Shown here piece after piece: positions 924 to 57,903 of a DNA stretch of 64,000 nucleotides; the first letter of the stretch is position 1, and every line of letters starts with the position of its first letter. Below the pieces are notes generated by a model. That model saw nothing but the letters and a program-made list of their open reading frames with translations. It made no database searches and had not been told where the DNA came from. The stretch is from contig DAOSXE010000008.1 in the NCBI GenBank assembly GCA_035380285.1, forward strand, positions 17,217-81,216, written 5' to 3'. This DNA is from a bacterium. Lineage in GTDB: Bacteria > Auribacterota > Erginobacteria > Erginobacterales > DAOSXE01. The translations under genes were made by a program, and so were the position numbers.

Positions 924-2504
924 GTGAAGGAAAAAAGCCCCCGCCGGTTCCCGGCGGGGGCTTTTTCTTTTTGCACCGGGAAGCGCCTTCTCGCCCTTCT
1001 GGCCGCATCCGCGCCCTTGCTCGGCCCGGGGCGGGCCGGGGGCGCCTGTTCTCCCGAACCCCGGATCGTGGACACCATTCCCCGCTACGGGCTGGGCTGG
1101 TCGGGGGGCGTCTGCTGGCGGGAGGGGAGGATCTACGAGGTCACCGACAAACTCGCCGGGGTCCTGATCAAGGATGCCGACAGCGGTTCGGTAGTAGGGT
1201 CCATCTCCCTTCCCTGGGACGACATCAAGGACATAACCTACGACTCCCGGAGGGACTCCTTCTGGGTCAAACCCGGGGAAGGGGTCCAGAGCGTCTACCG
1301 CATCAACGCCGACGGGGACGTGCTGGGGTCCTTCGACCACAGCGGCATCAACCGCTATATCTTCGGCCTATACTGCGATCCCCAGACCCCCGACGTCATG
1401 TGGATGGCCAGCCATGTCTCGCCCCGTCTCTATAAAGTCAGGCTCCCCGACGGGGCGGTGCTCGACACCATCGATCTGGACTTTCAGGCCCGGGGGGTGG
1501 TGCGCGCGGGGAACTACCTCTGGTGCACCTACGGCGGAGAGACCGGTGACCCGGGGCTGATCGTCAAGACCGACGCTACGGGCGCGATCCTCTGCACTTT
1601 CGAGCTGCCCGCCGGGGAGTACTGTCACGATGCCGGGGGGATGTCCCTGGACGACGCGGGCTGCCTCTGGGTCCATGGGGGGAAGAACACCGCGATCTAC
1701 CGGATCTGGACGGGGGAGACGCCGGCCCCCACCCCGGCTTCGACCGGGGAGGCTTCCTGCGATTCCGGAGATTTCGACGGCGACGGAACCAGCGACGCCG
1801 CCGTCTTCAGGCCCGGCAACGGACTCTGGGCGATCCGGGGAATCTCCCGGTTCTACTTCGGCCGTGACGGCGACCGTCCCGCCTGCGCCGACTACGACGG
1901 CGACGGGACCACCGATCCCGCTCTTTTCCGGAGTTCGGAGGGGCTTTGGATCCGGCTCGGCGGCGCGCGCTGCTACTTCGGGGCTTCCGGAGACGTCCCC
2001 GTCCCCGGGGACTACGACGGAAGCGGGACGTGCCGCCCCGCGATTTACCGGTCCGGCACCGGTTTCTGGGCGGTCAGGGCCCTGACCCGGTTTTTCTTCG
2101 GCGCCTCCGGAGACGCTCCGGTCCCGGGTTACTATTCCGGTTCCGCCTGCCTGGGCGCCGTTTTCCGGCCTGCCTCGGGCAAATGGCTGATCCGGGGCTC
2201 GACCGCTTGCTGGTTCGGGCAATCCGGAGACGTCCCCGTCCCTTCCCTGGGGGGCGCCCGCGGCGCCTGGCGGCCCGCGGTCTTCCGCCCCTCGTCCGGG
2301 TATTGGGCGGTGCGCGGCGGCCTCAAGGGCTATTTCGGCCGTTCCGGAGACGTGCCGGTTCCGGCCAGCTATGACGGCCGCCCGGATACGGTCTATGCCG
2401 CCGTCTTCCGCGCCTCCGCCGGGTTGTGGAAGATTTACGGCCGGACCGCCTTTTATCTGGGGAGCGCGGGAGATATCCCCCTCACCGGTTCCCCCTGTCG
2501 CTGA
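924..2504 (+). CDS. secreted FG-GAP/VCBS-like repeat protein with N-terminal beta-propeller-like domain (start codon uncertain)
   Basis: Paralog of the 11221-13590 protein (KRLLALLAASAPLLG signal-like segment, GWSGGVCW, IYEVTD, HDAGGMSLDDAGCLWVHGGKNTAIYRIW), then a PT-rich linker and about 7 FG-GAP-like repeats. The only in-frame canonical start after the upstream stop is GTG 924, so the terminator hairpin would lie inside the 5' coding region. The six-frame ORF 807-2504 overlaps the upstream gene and is an extension artefact. Confidence 0.7.
   Translation: MKEKSPRRFPAGAFSFCTGKRLLALLAASAPLLGPGRAGGACSPEPRIVDTIPRYGLGWSGGVCWREGRIYEVTDKLAGVLIKDADSGSVVGSISLPWDDIKDITYDSRRDSFWVKPGEGVQSVYRINADGDVLGSFDHSGINRYIFGLYCDPQTPDVMWMASHVSPRLYKVRLPDGAVLDTIDLDFQARGVVRAGNYLWCTYGGETGDPGLIVKTDATGAILCTFELPAGEYCHDAGGMSLDDAGCLWVHGGKNTAIYRIWTGETPAPTPASTGEASCDSGDFDGDGTSDAAVFRPGNGLWAIRGISRFYFGRDGDRPACADYDGDGTTDPALFRSSEGLWIRLGGARCYFGASGDVPVPGDYDGSGTCRPAIYRSGTGFWAVRALTRFFFGASGDAPVPGYYSGSACLGAVFRPASGKWLIRGSTACWFGQSGDVPVPSLGGARGAWRPAVFRPSSGYWAVRGGLKGYFGRSGDVPVPASYDGRPDTVYAAVFRASAGLWKIYGRTAFYLGSAGDIPLTGSPCR
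931..972 (+). terminator. rho-independent terminator (GC hairpin gcccccgccgg-ttc-ccggcgggggc followed by a T-run)
   Basis: Perfect 11-bp stem, 3-nt loop, then tttttcttttt, starting 16 nt after the stop of the upstream CDS. Confidence 0.6.
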
Positions 2505-2521
2505 CCCCCGGGGGGGAGAAA

Positions 2522-2870
2522 GGGTTCAGGGTTCGGGGTTCAGGGGGACCACTCCATGCCCGATGCTCTATGCTCTGTGCTTCTCACATATAGACATGTA
2601 GGTAATGTAGGGTGGATGGTGAAGGGGGTTTAGGATGTGGGCTTTGATTTGCCCATCTAAAATTTTCCCCAATCAGAGTTAATCAGAGAAATCAGGTGCA
2701 GAAATCTCCAGGGGCCGTGGCGGAGGCCTTGCTCTCTGCTCCCCCGAACCCTGAACCCTGAACCCTGTATTCCTCCCCCCGTCAGAGTTAATCAGAGTAA
2801 TCAGGTGCAGAAATCTCCAGGGGCCGTGGCGGAGGCCTTCCTCCTGAACCCCGAACCCTGAACCCTGGGG
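2522..2870. repeat. AT-rich composite repeat element: inverted (GGGTTCA)3 / (GAACCCT)3 heptamer arrays flanking an AT-rich core and two tandem about 100-bp units
   Basis: 2522-2547 gggttcagggttcggggttcaggggg is the reverse complement of 2847-2869. A 58-bp core tcagagttaatcagagNaatcaggtgcagaaatctccaggggccgtggcggaggcctt is present twice (2683-2740 and 2783-2839, 1 mismatch), each followed by (gaaccct)n. Local GC is far below the surrounding 70%. Confidence 0.5.
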
Positions 2871-2893
2871 GGAGCGGGCGGTGGGGTCTTACT

Positions 2894-3826
2894 CTATGCC
2901 CGCTGCCCCCCGCGGGTGGTCTCGCGCACCAGTCCGGCAGGGCGGCCCATGTTCCGGAAATGGAGCCGGGCGAGATAACTCCCGATGATCCCCAGCACCA
3001 GGAACTGGGCGCCCGAGAAGATGGCGATAATCGAGGCCAGGAACGGGAAACCGGGGAAACTGTAGCCGAGAACCAGGTAGCGGCCGACTACGTAGACCAG
3101 GATCCCCACCCCGAAAACGGTGAAGCCGAACCCCAGGAAGCTGACGACCTTCAGCGGCCAGGCGCTGAACCCGGTGATGACGTTGACGGCTTGAGCCAGA
3201 AGCTTGATGAAGCCGTAGTTCGACGTTCCTTCCCGGCGCGGCTCGTGGCGGACCCGGACGGCCCCGAAGCGCGATGTGCCCCAGGAAAGCGGGACGTCGA
3301 TGATGATGAACGGGCCCCGGTATTCCCGAAACGCCTGTTTGAGTTCGGAGCGCATGGCCCGAAAGGAGCTGACGCTGCGGGCCAGTTCCGGCCCCAGCGC
3401 GCTCTGAACCATGAGCCGCAACAGGGCCGAGCCGCGGCGCCTCCAGAAACTTTGGCGGATTTCCGCCGGGATGCCGTAGACCACGTCGGCGCCGGCCTCC
3501 AGTTCCCGCAGCAGCCGCGGGATCTCCTCGGGGGGGTTCTGGAGATCGTCGTCGATGGTGACGATGGCCTCGTGGCGGGCGATGTTGATCCCCTGGAGCA
3601 GGGCGTTGTGCTGTCCATAGTTCCGCATCAGGTCCACGCCGACTACCTTGTCGCCGTCCGCCGCCAGGGTTCTTATGGTATCCCAGCTGCGGTCGGTGCT
3701 GCCGTCGTTGACCAGGATGATTTCGTAATCTTCCGCGGCTTCGGCGAGTACGCGCCGAAGCCGGTCCACCAAGGGGGCAATGGTAGCTTCGCTGTTATAA
3801 ACCGGGACAACCACCGATACGTTCAT
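2894..3826 (-). CDS. GT2 family glycosyltransferase, polyprenyl-phosphate sugar synthase type (ArnC/GtrB/DPM1-like) with C-terminal TM helices
   Basis: MNVSVVVPVYNSE...ILVNDGSTD...DDDLQNPPEEIP is a GT-A DxD-type N-terminus with two C-terminal hydrophobic helices. Start ATG 3824-3826 with RBS agggag; the ATGA overlap with the upstream wecE stop indicates coupling. The six-frame ORF to 4099 is an upstream extension. Confidence 0.8.
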   Translation of the reverse strand: MNVSVVVPVYNSEATIAPLVDRLRRVLAEAAEDYEIILVNDGSTDRSWDTIRTLAADGDKVVGVDLMRNYGQHNALLQGINIARHEAIVTIDDDLQNPPEEIPRLLRELEAGADVVYGIPAEIRQSFWRRRGSALLRLMVQSALGPELARSVSSFRAMRSELKQAFREYRGPFIIIDVPLSWGTSRFGAVRVRHEPRREGTSNYGFIKLLAQAVNVITGFSAWPLKVVSFLGFGFTVFGVGILVYVVGRYLVLGYSFPGFPFLASIIAIFSGAQFLVLGIIGSYLARLHFRNMGRPAGLVRETTRGGQRA

Positions 3827-4974
3827 GGCTTGAACTCCCTGACCGCTGCGATTACCAGTTTCTGCTCCCGTTCTTCCAGCCCGGTAAAGAAGGGGAGCCG
3901 GAGCAGCCGCGCGCTCACGTCTTCGGTTACCGGGCAGTCTCCTTCCCGTCCTCCGTACCGCCGCCCCATGGGAGAGAGGTGCAGGGGCAGATAGTGGAAG
4001 ACGCTGCAGATCCGGCGCGAACGCAGATGCCCGATCAGGGCGTCCCGGGCGGCCGCCGAGGGAAGCAGGAGATGAAAAAGGTGGTAGGAACTCCGGCAAT
4101 GGTCCGGGACGACGGGGAGCCGGGCCCCTGCCGCCGCCGCCCAGTCCCGGAGGCCGTCGCGGTACCGGAACCAGATCGCCCGCCGCCGGTCCTGGATCCG
4201 TTCCCGGGCTTCCAGCTGGGCCAGGAGAAATCCGGCCAGGATATCGGAGAGCACGTAACTGCTGCCCAGGTCCAGCCAGGTGTATTTATCCGTCTGCCCG
4301 CGGAAGAGTTGACTGCGGTTGGTCCCTTTCTCCCGGATGATTTCGGCCCGCTCGATCAGATCGGCGCGGTTGATGATCAGCGCTCCCCCTTCCCCGCAGG
4401 AGATATTCTTGGTCTCGTGAAAACTGAGGGCGCCCAAGTCCCCGAAGCTGCCCAGGGGTTTTCCCCTCCAGCCGCCGAAGATCCCGTGGGCGTTGTCTTC
4501 CAGGACCGCCCACCCCCGCTCGCCCGCCAGCCCCATGATCGCGTCCATCTCGCAGCCCACCCCCCCGTAGTGGACGGGAACCACCGCCTTGACCCGCGGT
4601 CCCGCGGCGTCTTCCAGGAGACGTTCGTCGAGGTTGAGGGTGTCGGGCCTGATGTCGACGAACCGGGGTTTCGCTCCCCGGAGTATAAAGGCGTTCACGG
4701 TGGAGACGAAGGTGAAGGAGGGGACGATGACCTCGTCCCCGGGGCCGACGCCGAACAGCAGCGCCGCCATCTCCAGGGCGTGGGTACAGGAGGTGGTGAG
4801 CAGGACCCGGGGGGAGCCGGTTTCTTCCTCCAGTATCCGTTCGCAGCGCGCCGTGAACTCGCCGTTGCCGGAAATGTGTCCCCGCCGGATCGCCTCCCCG
4901 ATGTAGTCCAGTTCCGGTCCCGCCAGCCCGGCGCGGTTGAAGGGGATCGCCCAGGAAATCGCATTTGTTCCCAT
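3823..4974 (-). CDS. wecE: dTDP-4-amino-4,6-dideoxygalactose transaminase (DegT/DnrJ/EryC1 family, WecE-like)
   Basis: Near-collinear similarity to E. coli WecE recalled from memory (IPFN..G.ELDY, SCT.ALEMAALL, PSFTFVSTVNAF.LRGA, VPVHY.GV.CEMD.IM, SFHETKN, EGGAL.IN, ERAEIIREKGTNRSQ.FRGQ.DKYTW.D.GSSY, VFHY.PLH). Confidence 0.85.
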   Translation of the reverse strand: MGTNAISWAIPFNRAGLAGPELDYIGEAIRRGHISGNGEFTARCERILEEETGSPRVLLTTSCTHALEMAALLFGVGPGDEVIVPSFTFVSTVNAFILRGAKPRFVDIRPDTLNLDERLLEDAAGPRVKAVVPVHYGGVGCEMDAIMGLAGERGWAVLEDNAHGIFGGWRGKPLGSFGDLGALSFHETKNISCGEGGALIINRADLIERAEIIREKGTNRSQLFRGQTDKYTWLDLGSSYVLSDILAGFLLAQLEARERIQDRRRAIWFRYRDGLRDWAAAAGARLPVVPDHCRSSYHLFHLLLPSAAARDALIGHLRSRRICSVFHYLPLHLSPMGRRYGGREGDCPVTEDVSARLLRLPFFTGLEEREQKLVIAAVREFKP

Positions 4975-16481: not shown

Positions 16482-18760
16482 GAACCGGCGGCGGAAGGAT
16501 TAAAGGCCAGACGTCCGGTTACGGGAATGTCGTCCGTCCGACCCAGGTAGCAGCGGCTGACGTTCCGTATCCACCACAACCCCGTGGAACTCCGGAATAT
16601 CCCGATCTCTCCCGTGCCGTTTCCGCTGAAATCCGCGGGAACCGGCCGATCGGAGGCCGCCCCGAAATAGTGTTTGCCCCCGTCGGCCAGGGCCCAGAGC
16701 CCGGTGGAGGGGCGGAAGATCGCCGGCGTCTGCAGACCGGTTCCGGAATAGTTGGAAGGAACCGGAGCGTCGTCCCTGCGCCCGAAATATAATTTGGTGA
16801 TCCCCTGGATCGCCCACAGACCGGAGCCGGGGCGGAAGACTCCCCTGAACTTGACGTCGACGTAGTCGGGGTGGTAGTAGCCCGGTACGGGAATATCCCC
16901 GGCCTGCCCGAAAAAGGAACGGGTCAGGCCCCGGATCAGCCAGAGACCCTGGTCGGGACGGAAGACGGCGGCCTCGCAGGCGTGGTCCCAGCCGTTGTAG
17001 TCCCCCGGCACCGGCCAATCCCCCTCGCGCCCGAAGTACAGCCGGCTCACCCCCCGGCTCCACCACAGGCCATCCGCCGGGCGGAAGACGGCGACGTCGG
17101 TGGTCCCGTCGCCGTTGAAATCGCCGCAGGCGGGGAGGGCGCCCGGGCCCCCGAAATAAAACCGGCTCAGCCCCCGCAGCACCCACAGGCCGCTGTTTTC
17201 GCGGAAGACGGCGATGTCGGAGGTCCGGTCGCCGTCGAAATCGCCGCTGTCTTCATGGGAGTAGTCCGCCGCGCCGGGCGTGGGGATGGGGGAGGGAGAG
17301 GGGGAGGGGGAGGGAAAAGGCAGGCCGTCGTTCCAGGCTTCGGCGATCACCTGAGACCCTCCCGTCCAGACCGGGTGGATGCAATCCTCGACCAGAAGGC
17401 TCTCCCAGTCCCCATAGTCCCGGAAAGCCTGAAAGGGATCGGCGTAGGCGCAGTCCTTGATGGTGGTGGCGATCCCGATGATGTAGTTGCGCAGGTACTT
17501 GGTCCGATCGTAAAGATTGTCCCCGTCGCATCGGGGGATGACGGTGGCGATGACCGGCTCGACCCCTTTATCCCGGGACCGATCGATCATGGCTTCCAGG
17601 TTGGTGCTGATGGTTTCGTAGCCGACGCCGTCGCTGATATCGTTGGTTCCCGCCATGATCAGGATGCGGGCGGCCGGGTAGTTGTCGAGGACGTCGTCGA
17701 TTCCGGGACAGTAGCGGATGGGGTAACCGCCGCCGTGGAGGAGCTGCGCGGTGGTGCAGCCGGGATAGCCGTGGTTGTAGATGGTGTAGTTCGACCCGGG
17801 GAACCGCGCTTCCAGAATGTTCTCCAGGATGGGGATATAACACTTGCCCATGGGGGGGCCGTCGGTGCCGTAGGTGATGCTGTTGCCGTAGCCGATATAG
17901 GTGGTGGAGAGATCGCCGCGGCGCGCTCCCTCCGCGCCCGCTTCGACCGGGGGAGGGGAGACCGCCCAGGGCCTGAGAGCCCCCGCGGGGGTGAAGATCC
18001 AGGTCGTTCCCGGTGGAACCGGTTCGCTCCCCTCTTTCCAACCCCAGGCCGCGGGCGCGGGGAGGGACCGTTCGCTTTTCCCGGGCCGGGTTTGCCAATA
18101 CGCTCTGCCCCCGGCTACGAAGGGGGAAAACTGATCGGTCTCCGCCGGTTCTTCGGCCGCGGCCCGCGCCGCTCCTGCCGGGTCGCGCCGATAAATCTGG
18201 TAGAAGGAACCGTTCCACCCCTGCCAGACCGCGAACATCGTTCCGGCCCGATCCGCGCCCAGGGCCGGATTGACGTTGGGGGAGGTCCGGTTGGAGCTGA
18301 TCCCGGTTTCCGGGGTGAAACCGTCGCCGTCCCATCTCGACCAGAAGATGCCCGTCCCCGTTTCCCGTTCCGAAGCCCAGGCCACGACCGGGACGTTGCC
18401 GGCCATGCCCAGGGCCGGCGTCATGTCCCATCCCCGGGAGGACGAGACCCGCATCGGTTCCGACCAGCTTCCCGGGGCTCCCCGGGCCGCCACGATCGCG
18501 GGGGGGGAGTCTCCCTGTTCGGCCGCCCAGACCACCCAGACGGTCCCGTCGGGGGCCGCGGCCACCGCCGGAGCGTGGTTGCGGTCGAAACGGTCCGCGG
18601 GGGGGAAAGGGTATTCGACGGCGCCGGCCGGATCCCAGCGTCGGAGGGTGACGGGGTTTCCGGGAAGTTCCCGGGCGACTTCGACGGACCAGGTTTGGGC
18701 CGGTGCCCCCCGCCCCGAGAGCGCTAAAAGCAACGCGGCGATCGCGGTCGAACGTTTCAT
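16478..18760 (-). CDS. secreted multidomain protein: N-terminal beta-propeller-like region, central SGNH/GDSL hydrolase domain, C-terminal FG-GAP/VCBS-like repeats
   Basis: Signal peptide MKRSTAIAALLLALSGRGAPAQT; GYGNSITYGTD ... IMAGTNDI ... EDCIHP (SGNH blocks I, III, V); PSPSPSPSPIPTP linker; about 6 FG-GAP-like repeats; C-terminal tail DDIPVTGRLAFNPSAAGS. Confidence 0.8.
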   Translation of the reverse strand: MKRSTAIAALLLALSGRGAPAQTWSVEVARELPGNPVTLRRWDPAGAVEYPFPPADRFDRNHAPAVAAAPDGTVWVVWAAEQGDSPPAIVAARGAPGSWSEPMRVSSSRGWDMTPALGMAGNVPVVAWASERETGTGIFWSRWDGDGFTPETGISSNRTSPNVNPALGADRAGTMFAVWQGWNGSFYQIYRRDPAGAARAAAEEPAETDQFSPFVAGGRAYWQTRPGKSERSLPAPAAWGWKEGSEPVPPGTTWIFTPAGALRPWAVSPPPVEAGAEGARRGDLSTTYIGYGNSITYGTDGPPMGKCYIPILENILEARFPGSNYTIYNHGYPGCTTAQLLHGGGYPIRYCPGIDDVLDNYPAARILIMAGTNDISDGVGYETISTNLEAMIDRSRDKGVEPVIATVIPRCDGDNLYDRTKYLRNYIIGIATTIKDCAYADPFQAFRDYGDWESLLVEDCIHPVWTGGSQVIAEAWNDGLPFPSPSPSPSPIPTPGAADYSHEDSGDFDGDRTSDIAVFRENSGLWVLRGLSRFYFGGPGALPACGDFNGDGTTDVAVFRPADGLWWSRGVSRLYFGREGDWPVPGDYNGWDHACEAAVFRPDQGLWLIRGLTRSFFGQAGDIPVPGYYHPDYVDVKFRGVFRPGSGLWAIQGITKLYFGRRDDAPVPSNYSGTGLQTPAIFRPSTGLWALADGGKHYFGAASDRPVPADFSGNGTGEIGIFRSSTGLWWIRNVSRCYLGRTDDIPVTGRLAFNPSAAGS

Positions 18761-46388: not shown

Positions 46389-47110
46389 AGGAGATGCAGG
46401 CCGTGATTCTCTGCGGGGGCCTGGGAACGCGCTTGCGCCCCCTGACGGCCACGATTCCCAAAGCCCTGGTGGAAGTGGGCGGGCGCCCTTTTCTGGAGCA
46501 TCAGTTTCTGGAACTGCGGCGGCATTCGATCACCCGGATTCTGCTTCTGACCGGGTACCTGGGCGGGATGGTGGAGGATCGTTTCGGCGACGGAAGGGAG
46601 TGGGGGCTGGTGTTGAGCTATTCCCGGGAAGAGACGCCCCTGGGGACGGGAGGCGCTCTCCTTAGGGCGGCCCCGGGCCTGGAAGAGACGTTTTTTCTGA
46701 TCAACGGGGATACCTTTCTTCCCCTCGATTACCGCCGCTTGTCCCGGGCGTTTTCCGCGCGGTCCGGCGTCGGCCTGCTCAGCGTGGTCGCTTCCGCGGG
46801 GACCGGCCGGGTCCCCAATATCAGGCTGGGGGAGGCGGAGAAGGTGGTCGATTACCGCCGCCGGGGGCCGGCGGCGGAGGGTTTTACCCATGTCGACGCC
46901 GGCGTGGGAATATTCAGCCGGCGCCTGGTCGAGCATTTCCCCCCGGGCCCCGCCTTCGCTCTCGAAGAAACGGTATATCCGCTCCTGGCCGGCCGGGGGC
47001 TGCTGGGAAGTTTTTCCCCGGGCCACGATTTTTTCGATATCGGCACGCCGGAACGGCTGGCCGTTTTCGAAGACTACCTGCGTGAGAATGTCGGAGGGGC
47101 GGGGCGATGA
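46385..47110 (+). CDS. sugar-1-phosphate nucleotidyltransferase (NTP_transferase family)
   Basis: MQAVILCGGLGTRLRPLTATIPKALVEVGGRPFLEHQ (GxGTRL motif); ATGA overlap with the upstream stop. Confidence 0.75.
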   Translation: MKEMQAVILCGGLGTRLRPLTATIPKALVEVGGRPFLEHQFLELRRHSITRILLLTGYLGGMVEDRFGDGREWGLVLSYSREETPLGTGGALLRAAPGLEETFFLINGDTFLPLDYRRLSRAFSARSGVGLLSVVASAGTGRVPNIRLGEAEKVVDYRRRGPAAEGFTHVDAGVGIFSRRLVEHFPPGPAFALEETVYPLLAGRGLLGSFSPGHDFFDIGTPERLAVFEDYLRENVGGAGR

Positions 47111-48627
47111 AAACCGCCTTGCTCAGCGTCACCGATAAGACCGGGGTGGCGGACCTGGCCCGGGGTCTGGCCCGGGAGGGCTATTCCCTGGTCGCCAGCG
47201 GTGGAACCGCCGCCGCCGTGGAAGACGCCGGGGTGCCGGTTCGGCGCGTCGCCGATCTGACCGGTTTTCCGGAACTCCTGGGGGGAAAGGTCAAGACCCT
47301 GCACCCCGCCGTCCATGCCGCGGTCCTCGCCCGCCGCGCGGACCCGGGAGAGATGGGGGAGCTGGCGGCCGCGGGGGTCGCGCCCATCGATCTGGTCGCG
47401 GTCAACCTCTACCGTTTCGGGGAATGGGTCGAGGCCGGGACCGCTCACCCGGAGGCCGGGATCGATATCGGGGGTGCGGCGCTCCTGCGGGCCGCCGCCA
47501 AGAATTGGGAAGACGTCGTCGTTCTCTGCGATCCGGACGATTACGCCCCGGTGCTGGCGGCCCTTTCCCGGGGAGGGGTTCCGGCCGATTTCCGTCGGCG
47601 TCTGGCCGCCAAGGCCTTCGCGCTGACGGCGCGCTACGACGCCGAAATCGCGGCGTGGATGGAAGGCGAGGAATTCCCCCCCGGCGTCTGCTGCGGATAC
47701 GGGCTGAGCCGCCGCCTCCGCTACGGGGAGAATCCGCATCAGCGGGCGGCCCTCTACGCCGGGGGACCGGGGGCCGGCGCCGGACTAGCCGCCGCGCGCC
47801 AGCTCCACGGCAAGGAACTCTCCTACAACAACATCATCGACCTGGACAGCGCCCTCAGCCTGATCCTGGAATTTTCCGCCCCCGCCGCGGTCATCGTCAA
47901 GCATACCAACCCCTGCGGCGCCGCCCTGGCCGCCGCGCTCGAGCCGGCCTTCCGCCGCGCCCTCGCCGCCGACCCCAAGTCGGCTTTCGGGGGCATCGTC
48001 GCGCTCAACCGGGAAGTGGACGCCGCCACCGCCGCCGCCGCCGCTTCTTTTTTCGCCGAAGCGGTCGTGGCCCCCGGCTTCGCCCCCGGGGCGTTGGAGA
48101 TACTCACCCGGAAAAAGAATCTCCGCCTGCTGGAGACCGGCCCCTTCCGGGCCCGGGACCCGTTCCTGCGTTTTCGATCGGTTTACGGCGGCCTGCTCCT
48201 TCAGGACGAGGATAGCCGGGGTTGGGACCCCGCCGCTCTCGATCCGGTGACCGCGGCCAGGGTCCCGACCGCGCTGCTGCCGACGCTCGGGTTCGCCTGG
48301 CTGGTGGGAAAGCACGTCAAGTCCAACGCCATCGTCCTGGCCCGGGACGAGGCGGTAGTGGGGGTGGGGGCCGGGCAGATGAGCCGGATCGACGCCGCCC
48401 GGCTGGCTTTGGAAAAAGCCGCCGACGCCGGGCTGGACGTCCGGGGGGCGGTGCTGGCATCGGACGCTTTTTTCCCCTTCCGGGACGTCGTCGATCTGGC
48501 CGCGGCGGCCGGGGTGGCGGCGATCGTGCAGCCCGGGGGTTCCATCCGGGACCGCGATTCCATCCGGGCCTGCGACGAGCACGGTCTGGCCATGGTCTTC
48601 ACCGGCACCCGTCATTTCCGGCACTGA
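47107..48627 (+). CDS. purH: bifunctional AICAR transformylase / IMP cyclohydrolase
   Basis: [13 protein letters not shown] (MGS-like), [41 protein letters not shown] overlap with the upstream stop. Confidence 0.9.
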
Positions 48628-54500: not shown

Positions 54501-55566
54501 CACCTTCCAGATGTGGGTCTATTCGGCTTCTCCCGGTTCGATGGGGATCACCGCCAACTGGTACGTGGGCGGCTCCACCATCTACTGGGATACGGTCAAG
54601 TCGACCACGGCCAACCAGTGGGAACTTCTGACCGTCTCCTCGGTCTGCCTCGCCGGCGCCACCGACGCCCGCTGCGCCGTCCGCGGTTTCCTGGACGACG
54701 CTTTCTGCGGGTATGCCGACGACGGGGCCTGCTTCGAGGGGACCGCTCCCGTCACCCCGACTCCGGCCCCGCCCCAGGCGGGCGTGGTCGGCGATTACAA
54801 CGGCGACGGCACCTCCGACATCGCCGTCTTCCGTCCCTCCACCGGCCTCTGGGCGGTCCGGTCCTTCACCCGCGCCTATTACGGGGTGTCCACGGACCGT
54901 CCCGTTCCCGGCGATTACGACGGAGACGGTTCCTGGGAGATCGCGGTCTTCCGTCCCGCCGCCGGCAAGTGGCTCGTCTACGGGGGCACCTCCTTCTACT
55001 ACGGCACCGCCTCCGACCGCACGGTCCCCGGAGACTATAACGGCGACGGCACCGCCGAACTCGCGGTCTTCCGTCCCAGCCAGGGCAAATGGCTGGTGCG
55101 GGGCATGACTTCCGCCTACTACGGCGGAGCCGCCGACTTCCCGGTCCCCTCCGACTACGACGGGGACGGGGCGGACGACATCGCCGTCTTCCGCGCCGGG
55201 CAGGGCAAGTGGCTGATCCGCGACGTCCTCACCGCCTGGTTCGGAGTCTCCACGGACGCTCCGGTTCCCGCCGATTACGACGGGGACGGGGCGGACGACA
55301 TCGCCGTCTTCCGTCCCGGCCAGGGCAAATGGCTGGTTCGGAACGGGGCTTCCGTCTATTACGGCGTCTCTACCGACGTTCCGGTTCCCGCCGACTACGA
55401 CGGGGACGGGACCGCCGACACGGCGGTGTTCCGGGCCAACAAGGGCAAGTGGCTGATCAACAACCCCTCCGTGGCCACGATCTACTTCGGATCGTCCAAC
55501 GACAGCCAGGTCACCAACCCTTACCCGGGTCCGAAACCGACCCCGTCGGTCACTCCCACCACCTGA
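51556..55566 (+). CDS. secreted multidomain protein: N-terminal OB-fold-like beta domain, amidohydrolase-superfamily domain, PT linkers, CBM-like beta-sandwich domain, C-terminal FG-GAP/VCBS-like repeats
   Basis: RBS gggagaggag; signal peptide; PGLISTHDHL (HxH metal site); PTPMPTPTPP and TPTPTPEGYKTPTPPPTSTPTAPPSPTPEGYKTPIPTPTPS linkers; NLLPNPSFEYW..G.PDDW (CBM4/9/22-like); 7 FG-GAP-like repeats. The antisense 1722-aa ORF is rejected. Confidence 0.8.
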   Translation: MNRSALVTAGLLVFMAVVAASSWAVPISDIQNGTIPVGSTATITGVVNFVDSDIAQSSGNYDFYVADAAGAYNGICIYQGAYGVDIGDSVTMTGEVDEYNGKTELKSPTAFAINSRGNVPYAPVVVTAANFQNTEYDGCLVSLENVQVTNEDAGNGRWQIQPVGGGTAVTIDDELDYNYFPTNGDVFDSITGIVVRDTSASPNQILQPRFTADFAASSDIIPSYALHGTVVTMDSGFNVYENAYIVVDGDEIAEVTTSPPAVKVIDVDGLIFPGLISTHDHLAYDMWDFIPFTEAPDFVGRNEWAATQMYCDFKAQYSAFASYYDQIGKLVEVRMASSGCTVTQSQVSSRINHSDDGIAKLGIGILNGERYPGRCYDKVVGTTDASDWGDWHNAAVAGRVERYIVHLAETTDKGGDMINQWNDWKSFASFDGYDTIIHGINIPAAEYALFNHGTDVWGNPLQTVLSWACKSNMLLYDETADVGGALAQGAVVALAPDWTESGMPNMLAELNFCRWVAFENAWSIQTRTFVEMVTTNAAHGFGQSDRLGSIEAGKVANFMVIDNGPGDPYDDLLMVAGGGADADYRCGPQEVKLTVVAGRPIYGDGDLLTAANFPFLDPATIEDITICSAPKKLSIARHANIDGYGFDELFNDFYLTLWEKYQFSSKYPCDFLSYDPADVLPPTPMPTPTPPAGTYVIIAADDDACDHNSYFSADADYIYIGNRGGTSGVYTGGFRFENFNVPQGATITSAVLYMTQYPYSSKTSMGVTVYGDKSTNSAAFSSGDQPHERPSTTATVAWTFPAPAYEATITSPQLSAIVEEIVGQGGWSAGSPLTLLVQGNNPAVDQRNRVYSYNADPAKAAWLVVEYDAVTPTPTPEGYKTPTPPPTSTPTAPPSPTPEGYKTPIPTPTPSYVNLLPNPSFEYWTGGTPDDWTPVTGAVVAEETGTVHAGSKSLSLSVTGTAGTYGKGIYADAEPTVEGNTYTFQMWVYSASPGSMGITANWYVGGSTIYWDTVKSTTANQWELLTVSSVCLAGATDARCAVRGFLDDAFCGYADDGACFEGTAPVTPTPAPPQAGVVGDYNGDGTSDIAVFRPSTGLWAVRSFTRAYYGVSTDRPVPGDYDGDGSWEIAVFRPAAGKWLVYGGTSFYYGTASDRTVPGDYNGDGTAELAVFRPSQGKWLVRGMTSAYYGGAADFPVPSDYDGDGADDIAVFRAGQGKWLIRDVLTAWFGVSTDAPVPADYDGDGADDIAVFRPGQGKWLVRNGASVYYGVSTDVPVPADYDGDGTADTAVFRANKGKWLINNPSVATIYFGSSNDSQVTNPYPGPKPTPSVTPTT

Positions 55567-55680: not shown

Positions 55681-57903
55681 ATGAGAATCTTGTCGCTGAC
55701 AACGGTTTTCTGCGTGCTCGCCCCCGGATTGTCCGCTGCCGCCCCCTCCTCGGATCTCTCCGCATTCATTTTTTCCGCCGACGACCCGGCTCTGGTGCGC
55801 GGCACCGAGATTGCCGAAGCGTTTTTCCGAGACGGCGGGGAGGCGGGAGTGGTGGTCCTGCTGGAGAAGGGCGGGGCCGGGGGCGGTTCGGGCCCGGTTT
55901 CCCTCCGGGAGCGTCGGCTCGGGGAGGAGCGCTTCCGCGCCTTGGAGGACAAAGCCTTGGCGGTTTTCCCCCGGGGGAGTTTCCGTCTCCGCCACCGGTA
56001 CTCCGCCATCCCCGGTTTTTCGGGAACGGTGAGCCCGGAAGGGTTGGAGGCGTTGCTGGCCAGCGGTCTCGCTTTCTCCGTCGAGCCGGAGACCAGGATC
56101 GAAGCCTGTCTCCGTCAGGGGCTGGCCCTGATCGGCGCCGAGCGCTACCGCAGCCGGTTCGACGGTGCGGGGGTGGCCGTGGCCGTCTGCGACAGCGGAG
56201 TCGACTACCGCCACCCCCTCCTCGGCGGCGGCGGGTTCCCCAACCTCAAGGTCCTGGGCGGATACGATTTCGGCGACGGCGACGAAGATCCCTCCCCGGG
56301 GGGATCCGCCCATGGAACCGCCTGCGCCGGTATCGTCGCCGGGGCCCGGGAGGACGTCGGGGATTATATCGGCGGAGTCGCCCCCGGCGCCGGCATCTAC
56401 GCGCTCAAGATCACCTCGGGCGATTCCACCTCGGCCTCCTCCGGGGATATCGTCGCCGCCTGGGATTGGTGCGTCCGCCATCGCGACGACCGCCCCGGGC
56501 AGCCCCTACTGGTGATCACCCTCAGCTTCGGCGGGGGGAAGTTTGCCTCCGCCTGTGACGACTATTCTCCCGCGCTGACACAGGCGGCGGCCGCCGCGCG
56601 CGCGGCGGGGATAACCATCTTCGCCTCCGCCGGCAACAGCGGCTATTGCGACTCGGTCTGTTGGCCCGCCTGCGTCAGCGGGATCAATCCCGTCGGCGCC
56701 GTTTATGACGACGCCTTCGGCCCTATCGCTCCCTGCGTTTCCCAGGACAGCTGCCGCCCCGACAAAATCTACACCGACGGCTGCAGCACATCGTACTACG
56801 TTCTTCAGGAGTCGGAACCGGATCTGGTCGCCGCTTACTCCAACTCGTGGCCCCTGGCGGTTTTTCTGGCCCCCGCCGACCGGGTCCAGACCCTGGACAT
56901 AGCCGGCGCCGGGGGGTATACCGACGGGGATTATTATCCCGGTTTCGGAGGGACGTCCGCCGCCTGTCCCTATGCGGCCGGGGCCGCGGCCGTGGTCCAG
57001 GGCGCCTCCGTTTTCGTCAACGGGACGGCGCTCGCGCCTTCCGACCTGGAAGCGCTTCTGTGCGCCGCCGCCGTCAAGGTGGTCGACGAGAATACGGGGC
57101 AGGCCGCCTCCCGGATCGATCTGGAGAAAGCCCTTTGCACCCTCGTCGAACCCTTTCGGGACGTGGTCGGCGATTACAGCGGGGACGGCACCGCGGACGT
57201 GGCGATCTACCGCCCCCGCCTCGGGTTATGGGTCGTGCGCGGGATCACCCGGATCTGGTGGGGCCGCTCTGGGGATGTGCCGGTACCGGGCGACTACGAC
57301 GGCGACCGCACCTGGGAAGCCGCGGTTTTTCGTCCCTCCGCCGGGCAGTGGGAGATTCGGGGCGCCGGGTCGGTCTATTACGGCCGGACCGGGGACCTGC
57401 CGGTGCCCGCCGACTACAGCGGCGACGGCCGGTGCCAACCCGCGGTTTTCCGCCCCTCCACCGGAGGCTGGTTCGTGGGCGGGTCCTCTCCGTTGATTTT
57501 CGGCGGAGAGGGAGATACGCCTCTTCCGGCCGACTATGACGGCGACGGCCGTGCCGAGCCGGCGGTCTATCGGGCCGGCCTGGGCAAATGGATGTTCCCG
57601 GGATGCCCCCCGTTGTATTTCGGCAGGGAAGACGACCTGCCCGTGCCCGCGGATTACGACGGCGACGGGCGCGTGGACGTCGCCGTCTACCGGGCCCCCT
57701 CCGGCCGCTGGCTGGTCCGGGGAGTGACCGGCTGTTCCTTCGGCGCTTCCGGCGACCTGCCGGTTCCCGCCGATTACGACGGCGACGGCACCGCGGATAT
57801 CGCCGTCTTCCGGTCCGGCCGGTGCCGCTGGCTGGTCAAGGATGTCCTGAGCGCCTGGTTCGGCGTTTCCGGCGATCTGCCCGTCTCCGGCAACCTTCGC
57901 TGA
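55681..57903 (+). CDS. secreted subtilisin-like serine protease (S8 family) with C-terminal FG-GAP/VCBS-like repeats
   Basis: Signal peptide; catalytic triad motifs AVCDSGVD (Asp), HGTACAGIV (His), GGTSAACPYAAGAAA (Ser); then about 8 FG-GAP-like repeats; RBS aggagggggat. Confidence 0.85.
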   Translation: MRILSLTTVFCVLAPGLSAAAPSSDLSAFIFSADDPALVRGTEIAEAFFRDGGEAGVVVLLEKGGAGGGSGPVSLRERRLGEERFRALEDKALAVFPRGSFRLRHRYSAIPGFSGTVSPEGLEALLASGLAFSVEPETRIEACLRQGLALIGAERYRSRFDGAGVAVAVCDSGVDYRHPLLGGGGFPNLKVLGGYDFGDGDEDPSPGGSAHGTACAGIVAGAREDVGDYIGGVAPGAGIYALKITSGDSTSASSGDIVAAWDWCVRHRDDRPGQPLLVITLSFGGGKFASACDDYSPALTQAAAAARAAGITIFASAGNSGYCDSVCWPACVSGINPVGAVYDDAFGPIAPCVSQDSCRPDKIYTDGCSTSYYVLQESEPDLVAAYSNSWPLAVFLAPADRVQTLDIAGAGGYTDGDYYPGFGGTSAACPYAAGAAAVVQGASVFVNGTALAPSDLEALLCAAAVKVVDENTGQAASRIDLEKALCTLVEPFRDVVGDYSGDGTADVAIYRPRLGLWVVRGITRIWWGRSGDVPVPGDYDGDRTWEAAVFRPSAGQWEIRGAGSVYYGRTGDLPVPADYSGDGRCQPAVFRPSTGGWFVGGSSPLIFGGEGDTPLPADYDGDGRAEPAVYRAGLGKWMFPGCPPLYFGREDDLPVPADYDGDGRVDVAVYRAPSGRWLVRGVTGCSFGASGDLPVPADYDGDGTADIAVFRSGRCRWLVKDVLSAWFGVSGDLPVSGNLR

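Follow-up and report, generated by a model that had tools for sequence, protein, structure and literature searches.

Heptamer arrays and a 39-nt core between convergent genes: probably one locus of a dispersed, genome-specific mosaic of intergenic repeats

What is a dense cluster of short repeats doing between the 3′ ends of two bacterial genes? The question is raised by the spacer at positions 2505–2893 of the window (the whole 64-kb stretch of DNA that was analyzed), where 389 nt separate two convergent genes and carry three (GGGTTCR)3–4 arrays, of which one is forward and the others are inverted, together with a CTCTATG array and a pair of 58-nt units. A preliminary description, made from the letters of the sequence, singled out about 350 bp of this spacer as highly structured and AT-rich, and offered as candidate identities a pair of small RNA genes, a MITE-like element, or a bidirectional terminator/insulator. 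All of the features that it described were found to be present, with small corrections. We judge it reasonably probable that the segment at 2521–2867 is no gene but belongs to a mosaic of short intergenic repeats that is genome-specific and present in multiple copies, of which it represents one locus. Its first building block is a set of G-rich heptamer microsatellites (GGGTTCR, plus CTCTATG) of a class already described, and its second is a lineage-specific 39-nt core with a fast-diverging, G-rich tail. The features of the spacer and its neighbors are collected in Table 1.

Table 1. Features of the spacer and of the two genes that border it, in window coordinates
Feature	Coordinates	Strand	Remarks
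Upstream gene	924–2504	+	Called with a length of 526 aa in other assemblies; FG-GAP-like repeats of ~40 aa
Forward array F	2521–2548	+	AGGGTTCA GGGTTCG GGGTTCA GGGGGA; left arm of both inverted repeats
CTCCATG/CTCTATG array	2552–2581	+	Second heptamer type; found by TRF (4.3 copies); absent from the preliminary description
AT-richer stretch	2587–2670	+	Precedes core copy a
Core copy a	2671–2709	+	Three decamer-spaced AATCAGRG units, then AGGTGCAGAAATCTCC
G-rich tail a	2710–2730	+	AGGGGCCGTGGCGGAGGCCTT; same in both window copies, different at every other locus
Inverted array R1	2742–2767	-	CCCCGAACCCTGAACCCTGAACCCTG; the G-rich strand is the minus strand
Core copy b	2780–2818	+	CGTCAGAG as its first unit; the 58-nt unit differs from that of copy a at one A/T position
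G-rich tail b	2819–2839	+	Identical to tail a
Inverted array R2	2839–2867	-	TCCTCCTGAACCCCGAACCCTGAACCCTG; forms with F a 28-nt, 96% inverted repeat, of which it is the right arm
Family-2 glycosyltransferase gene	2894–3826	-	310 aa; convergent; stop codon 2894–2896

The boundaries of the spacer are two stop codons, at 2502–2504 on the plus strand and 2894–2896 on the minus strand, just as had been described; the first heptamer array begins 17 nt beyond the former, and 27 nt lie between the latter and the R2 array. A Pfam search of the upstream gene product returned nothing at E ≤ 0.001, and some homologs of the glycosyltransferase carry the JGI label undecaprenyl-phosphate 4-deoxy-4-formamido-L-arabinose transferase. 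With a GC content of 56.8%, falling to 49.5% in its center (2549–2740), the spacer is indeed AT-richer than its surroundings, although the window as a whole stands at 66.6% GC and not at the 70% previously estimated. Small ORFs in the spacer are limited to short, low-complexity ones, and the nearest downstream ATGs on the plus strand (2896 and 2960) fall within the antisense of the glycosyltransferase gene, and neither begins a credible gene. The entire spacer is 100% identical across six independent assemblies from JGI, ENA, and NCBI, and this base-for-base identity means that it is not an assembly artefact. Within the window, it is the only spacer that bears any of the modules described here.

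The inverted heptamer arrays reported earlier were borne out by alignment. Array F (AGGGTTCAGGGTTCGGGGTTCAGGGGGA; 2521–2548) is the reverse complement of 2839–2866 over 28 nt (27/28, or 96%, with 24 nt exact), and it also pairs with 2741–2777 as an inverted repeat of 37 nt at 84%; the loops between the inverted arms measure 194–290 nt. TRF delimits the period-7 arrays at 2521–2545, 2742–2767, and 2843–2867, in addition to 2552–2581. Directly outside both inverted arms of the window copy lies GGGGGGAG. A G-quadruplex sequence motif with four G-tracts spans F and a flanking G-run (2510–2538), and another occurs at R1 on the minus strand (2741–2765); exactly four G-tracts are present in two of the three window arrays, where a quadruplex is predicted from the sequence motif. 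The remainder of the 64-kb window contains no exact match to the heptamer arrays.

Interposed between the arrays are two tandem units (2667–2734 and 2776–2843) that share 94% identity across 68 nt, and within these the 58-nt repeats at 2673–2730 and 2782–2839 differ by a single base (A/T), in agreement with the earlier account. The tandem spacing of 100 bp given there holds from array to array (100 nt), whereas the distance from core to core is 109 nt. Each unit contains the 39-nt core, AATCAGAGTTAATCAGAGNAATCAGGTGCAGAAATCTCC, which is essentially invariant among the full copies in the genome. Its layout is AATCAGAG-TT-AATCAGAG-N-AATCAGG, i.e., three units spaced one helical turn apart and followed by AGGTGCAGAAATCTCC. 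Three intact copies of the unit AATCAGAG are present in the 64-kb window, all inside the spacer; the internal triplication previously noted exists as triplets of this unit, except that the third member of each is the imperfect AATCAGGT. Since tails a and b are identical, a recent local duplication is indicated. Ahead of core copy a, the sequence at 2626–2665 (gggtttaggatgtgggctttgatt..cccat.taaaatttt) shares 90% identity with what comes before the core at another locus (L016), and its cccatTAAAAT portion is found again at a third (L021).

Further copies had been anticipated in the preliminary description, and they were found in number. When metagenomes were scanned with a core 20-mer, 12 stretches were retrieved, four of them chance matches inside unrelated sequence, and the other eight resolved into five distinct sites: L015, L016 (the same as L012 and L018), L019 (the same as L020), L021, and L023. 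At all five, the flanks contain short modules of the same kinds as those in the window. An nhmmer profile built from the two window units raised the tally to 11 distinct core copies at six or more loci, and the statistics on copy number and orientation refer to these 11 copies in ~130 kb of the organism’s genome. The tetranucleotide correlation with the window was 0.93–0.95 for L019, L020, L021, and L023, 0.85 for L015, and 0.76 for the low-GC L016 (0.52), against reference values of 0.97 between the two window halves and 0.50–0.64 for unrelated high-GC DNA. These signatures place most of the loci in the window’s genome or a very close one, whereas L016, given its GC content and correlation, may lie outside the window’s replicon. 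The window locus and the L016-type locus co-occur in the same samples, and four contigs terminate inside the core.

The loci are alike in their parts and unlike in their plan. A regex map gave every locus its own order, number, and orientation of modules, with three types of heptamer array, the 39-nt core, and a 20-nt palindrome among the modules shared. The CTCTATG-type array recurs beside core copies in L019, L020, L021, and L023. The perfect palindrome, CCTGCCTGCCGGCAGGCAGG, has TCTGTG on both sides and is found at L015, L016, and L019 and is absent from the window; further recurrent modules are a GATTGCTTCG...CGCAATGAC inverted repeat, CATGAAG repeats, and CACAAGAGGCACAA. In shortened cores, exactly one decamer is missing (L016, L020) or none is left (L020, L015), such that the number of AATCAGRG units changes by whole decamers (3, 2, or 0). 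Polarity, on the other hand, is fixed within the assemblage: a C-run usually lies 5′ of the core and a G-rich tail of ~20 nt, different at every locus, lies 3′ of it, and the arrays that follow the core have one polarity in 11 of 11 cases (GAACCCY, CTGAATW/CTGTATT, or CTCTATG). All of the heptamer arrays at the window, L015, L016, L019, L020, L021, and L023 are intergenic; the forward array starts 7 nt after a stop codon at L020 and ~14 nt after one at L021, compared with the 17 nt in the window; and, by our own reading of the loci, approximately eight of ten core copies are co-directional with the adjacent gene. The family is therefore dispersed and its modules are shuffled under a fixed internal polarity.

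Perfect conservation of the core beside a variable tail counts against the mosaic reading. It hints at sequence-specific selection, for example on a binding site, and a purely passive model leaves it unexplained.

The family is missing from the syntenic spacer of a distant relative. In that relative (L025), a 249-aa gene, a DegT-type aminotransferase, the glycosyltransferase (66% aa identity), and convergent FG-GAP proteins occur in the same order as in the window, and the corresponding spacer is 79 nt in length and devoid of modules. A second relative (L024; glycosyltransferase 71%) has none in the 93 nt that precede its contig end. The organism is without near relatives in the databases, and the closest non-self homologs (71% for the glycosyltransferase and 61% for PurH) are too distant to define insertion boundaries. 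Among species-representative genomes, the core 20-mer gave one chance match in an unrelated MAG and no other; repeat-induced assembly breaks are one possible reason for its absence from these genomes. No core was found in viral contigs, nhmmer of the core against 1.8 Mb of loci hit the focal organism only (plus chance 20-mers), and plasmid and phage records showed no similarity to the spacer in blastn. As far as these sequence searches reach, the 39-nt core is restricted to this organism or its lineage.

Viewed from the window alone, such a distribution could suggest a MITE-like, non-autonomous element bounded by heptamer-array inverted repeats and mobilized by a transposase supplied in trans. 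The window copy has 28-nt termini that are inverted at 96% identity, GGGGGGAG sits directly beyond both arms, and the family is multi-copy, limited to one lineage, and missing where the relative’s synteny would place it. The other copies, however, have neither inverted termini nor a constant boundary nor target-site duplications: GGGTTCA arrays flank the core in direct orientation at L021 and L023, an array is missing on one side at L019, and no two loci have element boundaries in common. The apparent duplication of a G-run/C-run (GGGGGGAG) belongs at other loci to the array module itself, and heptamer arrays stand alone in many unrelated contigs. The flanking ORFs that were tested yielded no transposase, and Pfam detected neither an integrase nor a reverse transcriptase in the ORFs beside the copies examined. 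We consider a MITE-like element to be very unlikely. Because the modules are shuffled between loci, the forward/inverted arrangement of the window is one combination among several.

Folding and RNA searches bear on another of the identities first proposed, namely two tandem small RNA genes, one per ~100-nt unit. The units do have 58 nt in common with one mismatch, and on the minus strand they can pair their GGGUUCA arrays with the CUGAUU decamers through G-U pairs, with predicted fold energies of -40.6 and -24.3 kcal/mol compared with -29.7 and -12.7 kcal/mol on the plus strand. Yet single-unit folds were no better than those of shuffled sequences (z -0.25 to -0.96), and consensus folding of nine core copies with Alifold was essentially structureless (-2.6 kcal/mol forward and -4.0 kcal/mol reverse) and contained a single compensatory pair. 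Neither at the gathering nor at a permissive (E ≤ 10) cut-off did Rfam return a relevant match for the window, the spacer, or any of six related loci, region 2300–3100 contains zero promoter-like and zero terminator-like sites, and the sequences flanking the core are unlike at every locus. A pair of small RNA genes is thus scarcely credible.

What does fold is the spacer as a whole, with z-scores of -3.1 on the plus strand and -4.35 on the minus strand. The predicted F:R1 and F:R2 stems have energies of -76.6 and -65.7 kcal/mol, respectively, and are similar on both strands. These are long-range stems only; neither strand of the spacer has a match to an intrinsic terminator consisting of a short GC-rich hairpin and a U-tract. 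Several other structures and sites were considered for the spacer. It is not a CRISPR array, with two units only, set 109 nt apart, and with repeat modules as the sequence between them; nor did an IHF site, an attC site, tRNA T-arm mimicry, CsrA sites, or 16S complementarity fit.

We return to the mosaic reading, and to how such a locus could arise and act. Arrays of this kind would arise and change by replication slippage, and unequal or illegitimate recombination between arrays could shuffle and duplicate the interposed core, as in the two units of the window. Slippage or instability is not visibly ongoing, because the spacer is invariant among its six assemblies. Given that the polarity of the element (G-rich array, then core, then C-rich arrays) runs with the upstream, plus-strand gene, the element is probably transcribed as that gene’s 3′ UTR. 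In such a transcript, the forward array could pair with either inverted array to create a stem of 28–37 bp, and the opposite strand could form the same stem. It is conceivable that this stem protects the 3′ end, serves as a substrate for a double-strand-specific RNase, or impedes read-through into the convergent glycosyltransferase gene; a role in 3′-end protection or insulation is one that we infer by analogy with other transcribed inverted repeats, such as Correia elements and REP/BIME.

The main rival to the mosaic reading holds that the AATCAGRG units, and possibly the NNNCTGA heptamers as well, are sites recognized by a protein that binds DNA or RNA; global regulators, nucleoid-associated proteins, and post-transcriptional regulators are examples of what could be envisaged. 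Protein binding has precedents in proposals made for the heptamer arrays of Geobacter metallireducens and the TAACTGA repeats of Beggiatoaceae, and three units found here (ACCCTGA, ATWCTGA, and CTCCTGA) match the MTYCTGA consensus of the former (PMC2700814) and resemble the latter (PMC4679880). It would also accommodate a 39-nt core that is invariant in sequence with no conserved secondary structure on either strand, and a unit number that steps by whole decamers (3, 2, 0). On the other side, recent spread could explain perfect conservation equally well, and no candidate binding protein was found encoded nearby. Moreover, the window site is enclosed by two convergent 3′ ends, and there is neither a promoter-like sequence nor, for ~90 nt, a start codon, so that this copy is not placed as a classical operator or ribosome site would be. 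We regard a protein-binding function, whichever of these proteins is envisaged, as unlikely.

A simpler proposition is that the locus is functionless repeat debris, tolerated in spacers between convergent genes and without effect on its neighbors. The absence of the element from a relative with the same gene order, the lack of a fixed plan in module arrangement, and the presence of modules in one window spacer only would all be expected of debris, and no regulatory role was identified by Rehm et al. for analogous repeats (PMC4692102). What debris does not predict is a position and strand of the arrays that are strongly non-random with respect to stop and start codons, in this genome as well as in viral contigs. 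Nor does it predict the perfect conservation of the core, or that two window arrays out of three should have exactly four G-tracts, the number known from the published class. Debris is a possible, if doubtful, account of the locus.

The non-random placement of the arrays is most evident outside of this organism. The heptamer had been called telomere-like and unusual for a bacterium, an impression that did not survive a scan of viral contigs: (GGGTTCA)3 was found in 85 stretches, in contigs of 41–72% GC, and the class to which it belongs has been described in bacteria (PMC4692102). A literature search for the heptamer strings themselves yielded telomere and primer matches only. In the same contigs, triplets of GGTGTCA occurred in 53 stretches, CTGAATW in 22, and CTCTATG in seven, compared with ten for GGGTATC, a stop-free control of the same composition; GGTGTCA keeps CTGA on its reverse strand and is therefore not a clean control. 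When the GGGTTCA arrays are read in their C-rich orientation, 45 of 81 have an ORF of at least 60 aa starting within the next 30 nt, as against 15 of 81 on the other side, with the same bias seen for GGTGTCA arrays (30/60 versus 12/60). Eleven forward/inverted hairpins (e.g., L103, L042, and L081) are located between a stop and the next start, with an ORF stop 2–29 nt upstream in ten of the eleven and the next start 2–42 nt downstream in all eleven. On the C-rich strand, the units seen here (ACCCTGA, ATWCTGA, and CTCCTGA) conform to NNNCTGA, and it follows directly from the sequence that a run of three such units puts a TGA into each reading frame.

These placements could be read more boldly. 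The NNNCTGA-type arrays (GGGTTCA, GGTGTCA, and CTGAATW units, together with TAACTGA) might represent one polar and widespread class of intercistronic RNA/DNA signal, present in bacteria and especially in phages, to which the window’s organism would have added a dedicated, protein-binding 39-nt core, thereby creating a lineage-specific regulatory or chromosome-organizing network. Forward/inverted hairpins would then stand between a stop and the next start, single C-rich arrays would replace the Shine-Dalgarno region, and the arrays would act in mRNA processing or in the coupling of termination and re-initiation. As a whole, this proposal strikes us as distinctly unlikely and speculative.

The mosaic reading has practical as well as biological implications. 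Repeats of this type break short-read assemblies, and in annotation they can be mistaken for sRNAs, MITEs, or telomere-like sequence. The locus adds GGGTTCR as a new unit to the published class of G-rich heptamers and widens its range to include an uncultured bacterium of a deep-branching lineage as well as many phage-like contigs, and it illustrates that heptamer arrays can combine with a strictly conserved, non-repetitive core. We know of no function shown for any member of the G-rich heptamer repeat class. If the positional rules do reflect function, the arrays would constitute a cheap and widespread means of shaping mRNA ends or translation starts in GC-rich genomes. The most intriguing thread is the abundance in phage-like contigs of arrays close to stops and starts, with a possible role in mRNA processing or translation.

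Several known systems offer points of comparison, and the closest for the arrays is the class described by Rehm et al. in 2015, in which GGGAATC (Xanthomonas) and GGGGAYT (Nostoc) form dispersed, non-coding arrays of about four units (PMC4692102). These heptamers sit just 3′ of stops in the sense orientation or 5′ of starts in the antisense, often as inverted pairs, of which there are 70–75 per genome, with 16% between convergent ORFs; most of the arrays are transcribed, quadruplexes form in vitro, and no function or regulatory role was identified (PMC4692102). The arrays of the window and the viral contigs have in common with this class (PMC4692102) the tandem G3–4N3–4 heptamers of at least two and preferably about four units, several loci, and a mostly non-coding character, together with the post-stop/pre-start placement, the inverted pairs, and the convergent-ORF location. 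They differ from it in their unit, which is GGGTTCR here and GGGNATC there, in the interleaving of two other heptamer types and a 39-nt core, and in inverted arms that stand 194–290 nt apart. The quadruplex of the published class was formed in vitro, and that of the window is predicted from a sequence motif.

To our knowledge, no regulator is known for TAACTGA, MTYCTGA, or related heptamer repeats. The MTYCTGA arrays of G. metallireducens have been annotated as “predicted global regulator binding sites” (PMC2700814), and TAACTGA direct heptamer repeats occur directly 5′ of start codons in Beggiatoaceae, cyanobacteria, and Bacteroidetes (PMC4679880). The units here resemble both in reading NNNCTGA on the C-rich strand, and the viral-contig arrays, like TAACTGA, are found directly 5′ of starts at the position of the ribosome-binding site. 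Unlike the TAACTGA leader repeats (PMC4679880), the window arrays have no start codon after them. Several heptamer units are also known as intergenic tandem arrays in the single genome of the cyanobacterium Calothrix PCC 7601 (cited in PMC4692102). Such co-existence of several units between the genes of one genome is shared with the organism studied here, the unit sequences and the lineage being different. The Calothrix heptanucleotides go by the name of short tandemly repeated repetitive (STRR) sequences and come without an attached conserved, non-repetitive core.

The Correia elements of Neisseria are bounded by inverted repeats and, when transcribed, form a hairpin that RNase III can bind or cleave, with effects on neighboring genes (PMC2649163). 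As short, non-coding elements with inverted repeats, they provide a working analogy for the predicted 28–37-bp stem of the window, although their constant ends, TA target duplication, IHF site, and promoter-generating termini are all absent here. The REP/BIME sequences of E. coli are extragenic, modular, interspersed repeats. Neither they nor the pneumococcal BOX elements (PMC3049150) share sequence similarity with the mosaic, whose modules are mostly tandem heptamers and not palindromic and in which no REP-associated transposase and no fixed A-B-C order were seen. Like both, nonetheless, it is extragenic and multi-copy, is composed of a few short modules in variable number and order, and could form stable RNA stems in the UTRs of its neighbors, so that a BIME/BOX-like assemblage is the best reading of the mosaic.

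The source organism (GCA_036822455.1) is a deep-branching lineage; the best non-self homolog of its housekeeping PurH (window 47086-48627) reaches no more than 61% identity, and that of the glycosyltransferase (window 2894-3826, minus strand) no more than 71%. The repeat family also leaves its mark on assemblies. Four short-read contigs with this glycosyltransferase gene (L005, L006, L009 and L010) end 46-95 nt past it, with break points within the first core copy or shortly before it; a multi-copy repeat has just this effect on an assembly graph.

Beyond the 39-nt core, a 20-nt perfect palindrome, CCTGCCTGCCGGCAGGCAGG, with TCTGTG on either side, recurs as a separate module and is followed by a G-rich tail similar to that after the core. 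An inverted repeat on GAGATTGCTTCGTCG...CTCGCAATGAC (complement GTCATTGCGAG...CGAAGCAATCTC) is likewise found repeatedly within repeat regions, and similar sequences are presumably present in many unrelated bacterial genomes. Family modules are dense in a 1.7-kb gene-poor stretch of metagenome contig L015 (2481-4199), which contains a 148-aa ORF of lower GC (2843-3289) without a Pfam match; directly downstream lies a TetR-family gene with a GAAC-N-TTCAC near-palindrome in its promoter region. Metagenome contig L016 (1-14586; identical to L012 and L018) bears a truncated core together with other modules. Its GC is low (51.6%), its tetranucleotide signature fits that of the window more poorly (r 0.76), and it has a 1516-aa ORF plus a number of smaller ORFs lacking Pfam matches; possible identities are an island acquired by the window's host and a further replicon of that host. 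Repeats of a coding kind also occur in the window as 120-nt (40-aa) tandem units of FG-GAP/VCBS-like type (DYDGDG...DIAVFR...G.W), and in the gene whose stop codon ends at 2504 this type takes up the whole C-terminal half.

Coordinates of repeat features in the window, metagenome contigs and viral contigs
Feature	Positions	Source
Palindrome CCTGCCTGCCGGCAGGCAGG	L015:2613-2632, 3729-3748, 3928-3946; L016:10906-10925; L019:1131-1150	metagenome contigs
Inverted repeat GAGATTGCTTCGTCG...CTCGCAATGAC	L016:10770-10850; L019:1040-1095; L021:3150-3235	metagenome contigs
120-nt FG-GAP/VCBS-like coding repeats	17030-17247, 54873-55455, 57633-57884	window
GGGTTCA hairpins	L103:1-420, 1200-1450, 3150-3450; L042:4120-4450; L081:4400-4700	viral contigs
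Further heptamer units adjoining GGGTTCA arrays	L105:9480-9620; L029:5298-5480; L034:1646-1700	viral contigs

In viral contigs, single C-rich arrays tend to precede ORF starts. Counted over viral loci L026-L105 and L111-L163, an ORF start lay 0-30 nt downstream of 45 of the 81 single (TGAACCC)n arrays (15 of 81 on the opposite side) and of 30 of the 60 single (TGACACC)n arrays (12 of 60), a roughly threefold start-side excess. A stop-free heptamer of unchanged composition was much rarer, with 10 stretches as against 85 for GGGTTCA and 53 for GGTGTCA.

Hairpins of the form (GGGTTCA)n-loop-(TGAACCC)n occupy the gap between a stop codon and the next ATG in high-GC, phage-like contigs. Inverted units usually outnumber forward ones, and the sequence at the end of the hairpin is often ...GAACCCTcccATG, where a Shine-Dalgarno sequence cannot fit. 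GGGTTCA arrays are also adjoined by further units, namely GGGGTGC, GAACTCT, AATCCCC and the pair GGTTCAA and TTGAACC, which are inverses of each other. Viral contigs thus resemble the focal genome in combining several types of heptamer.
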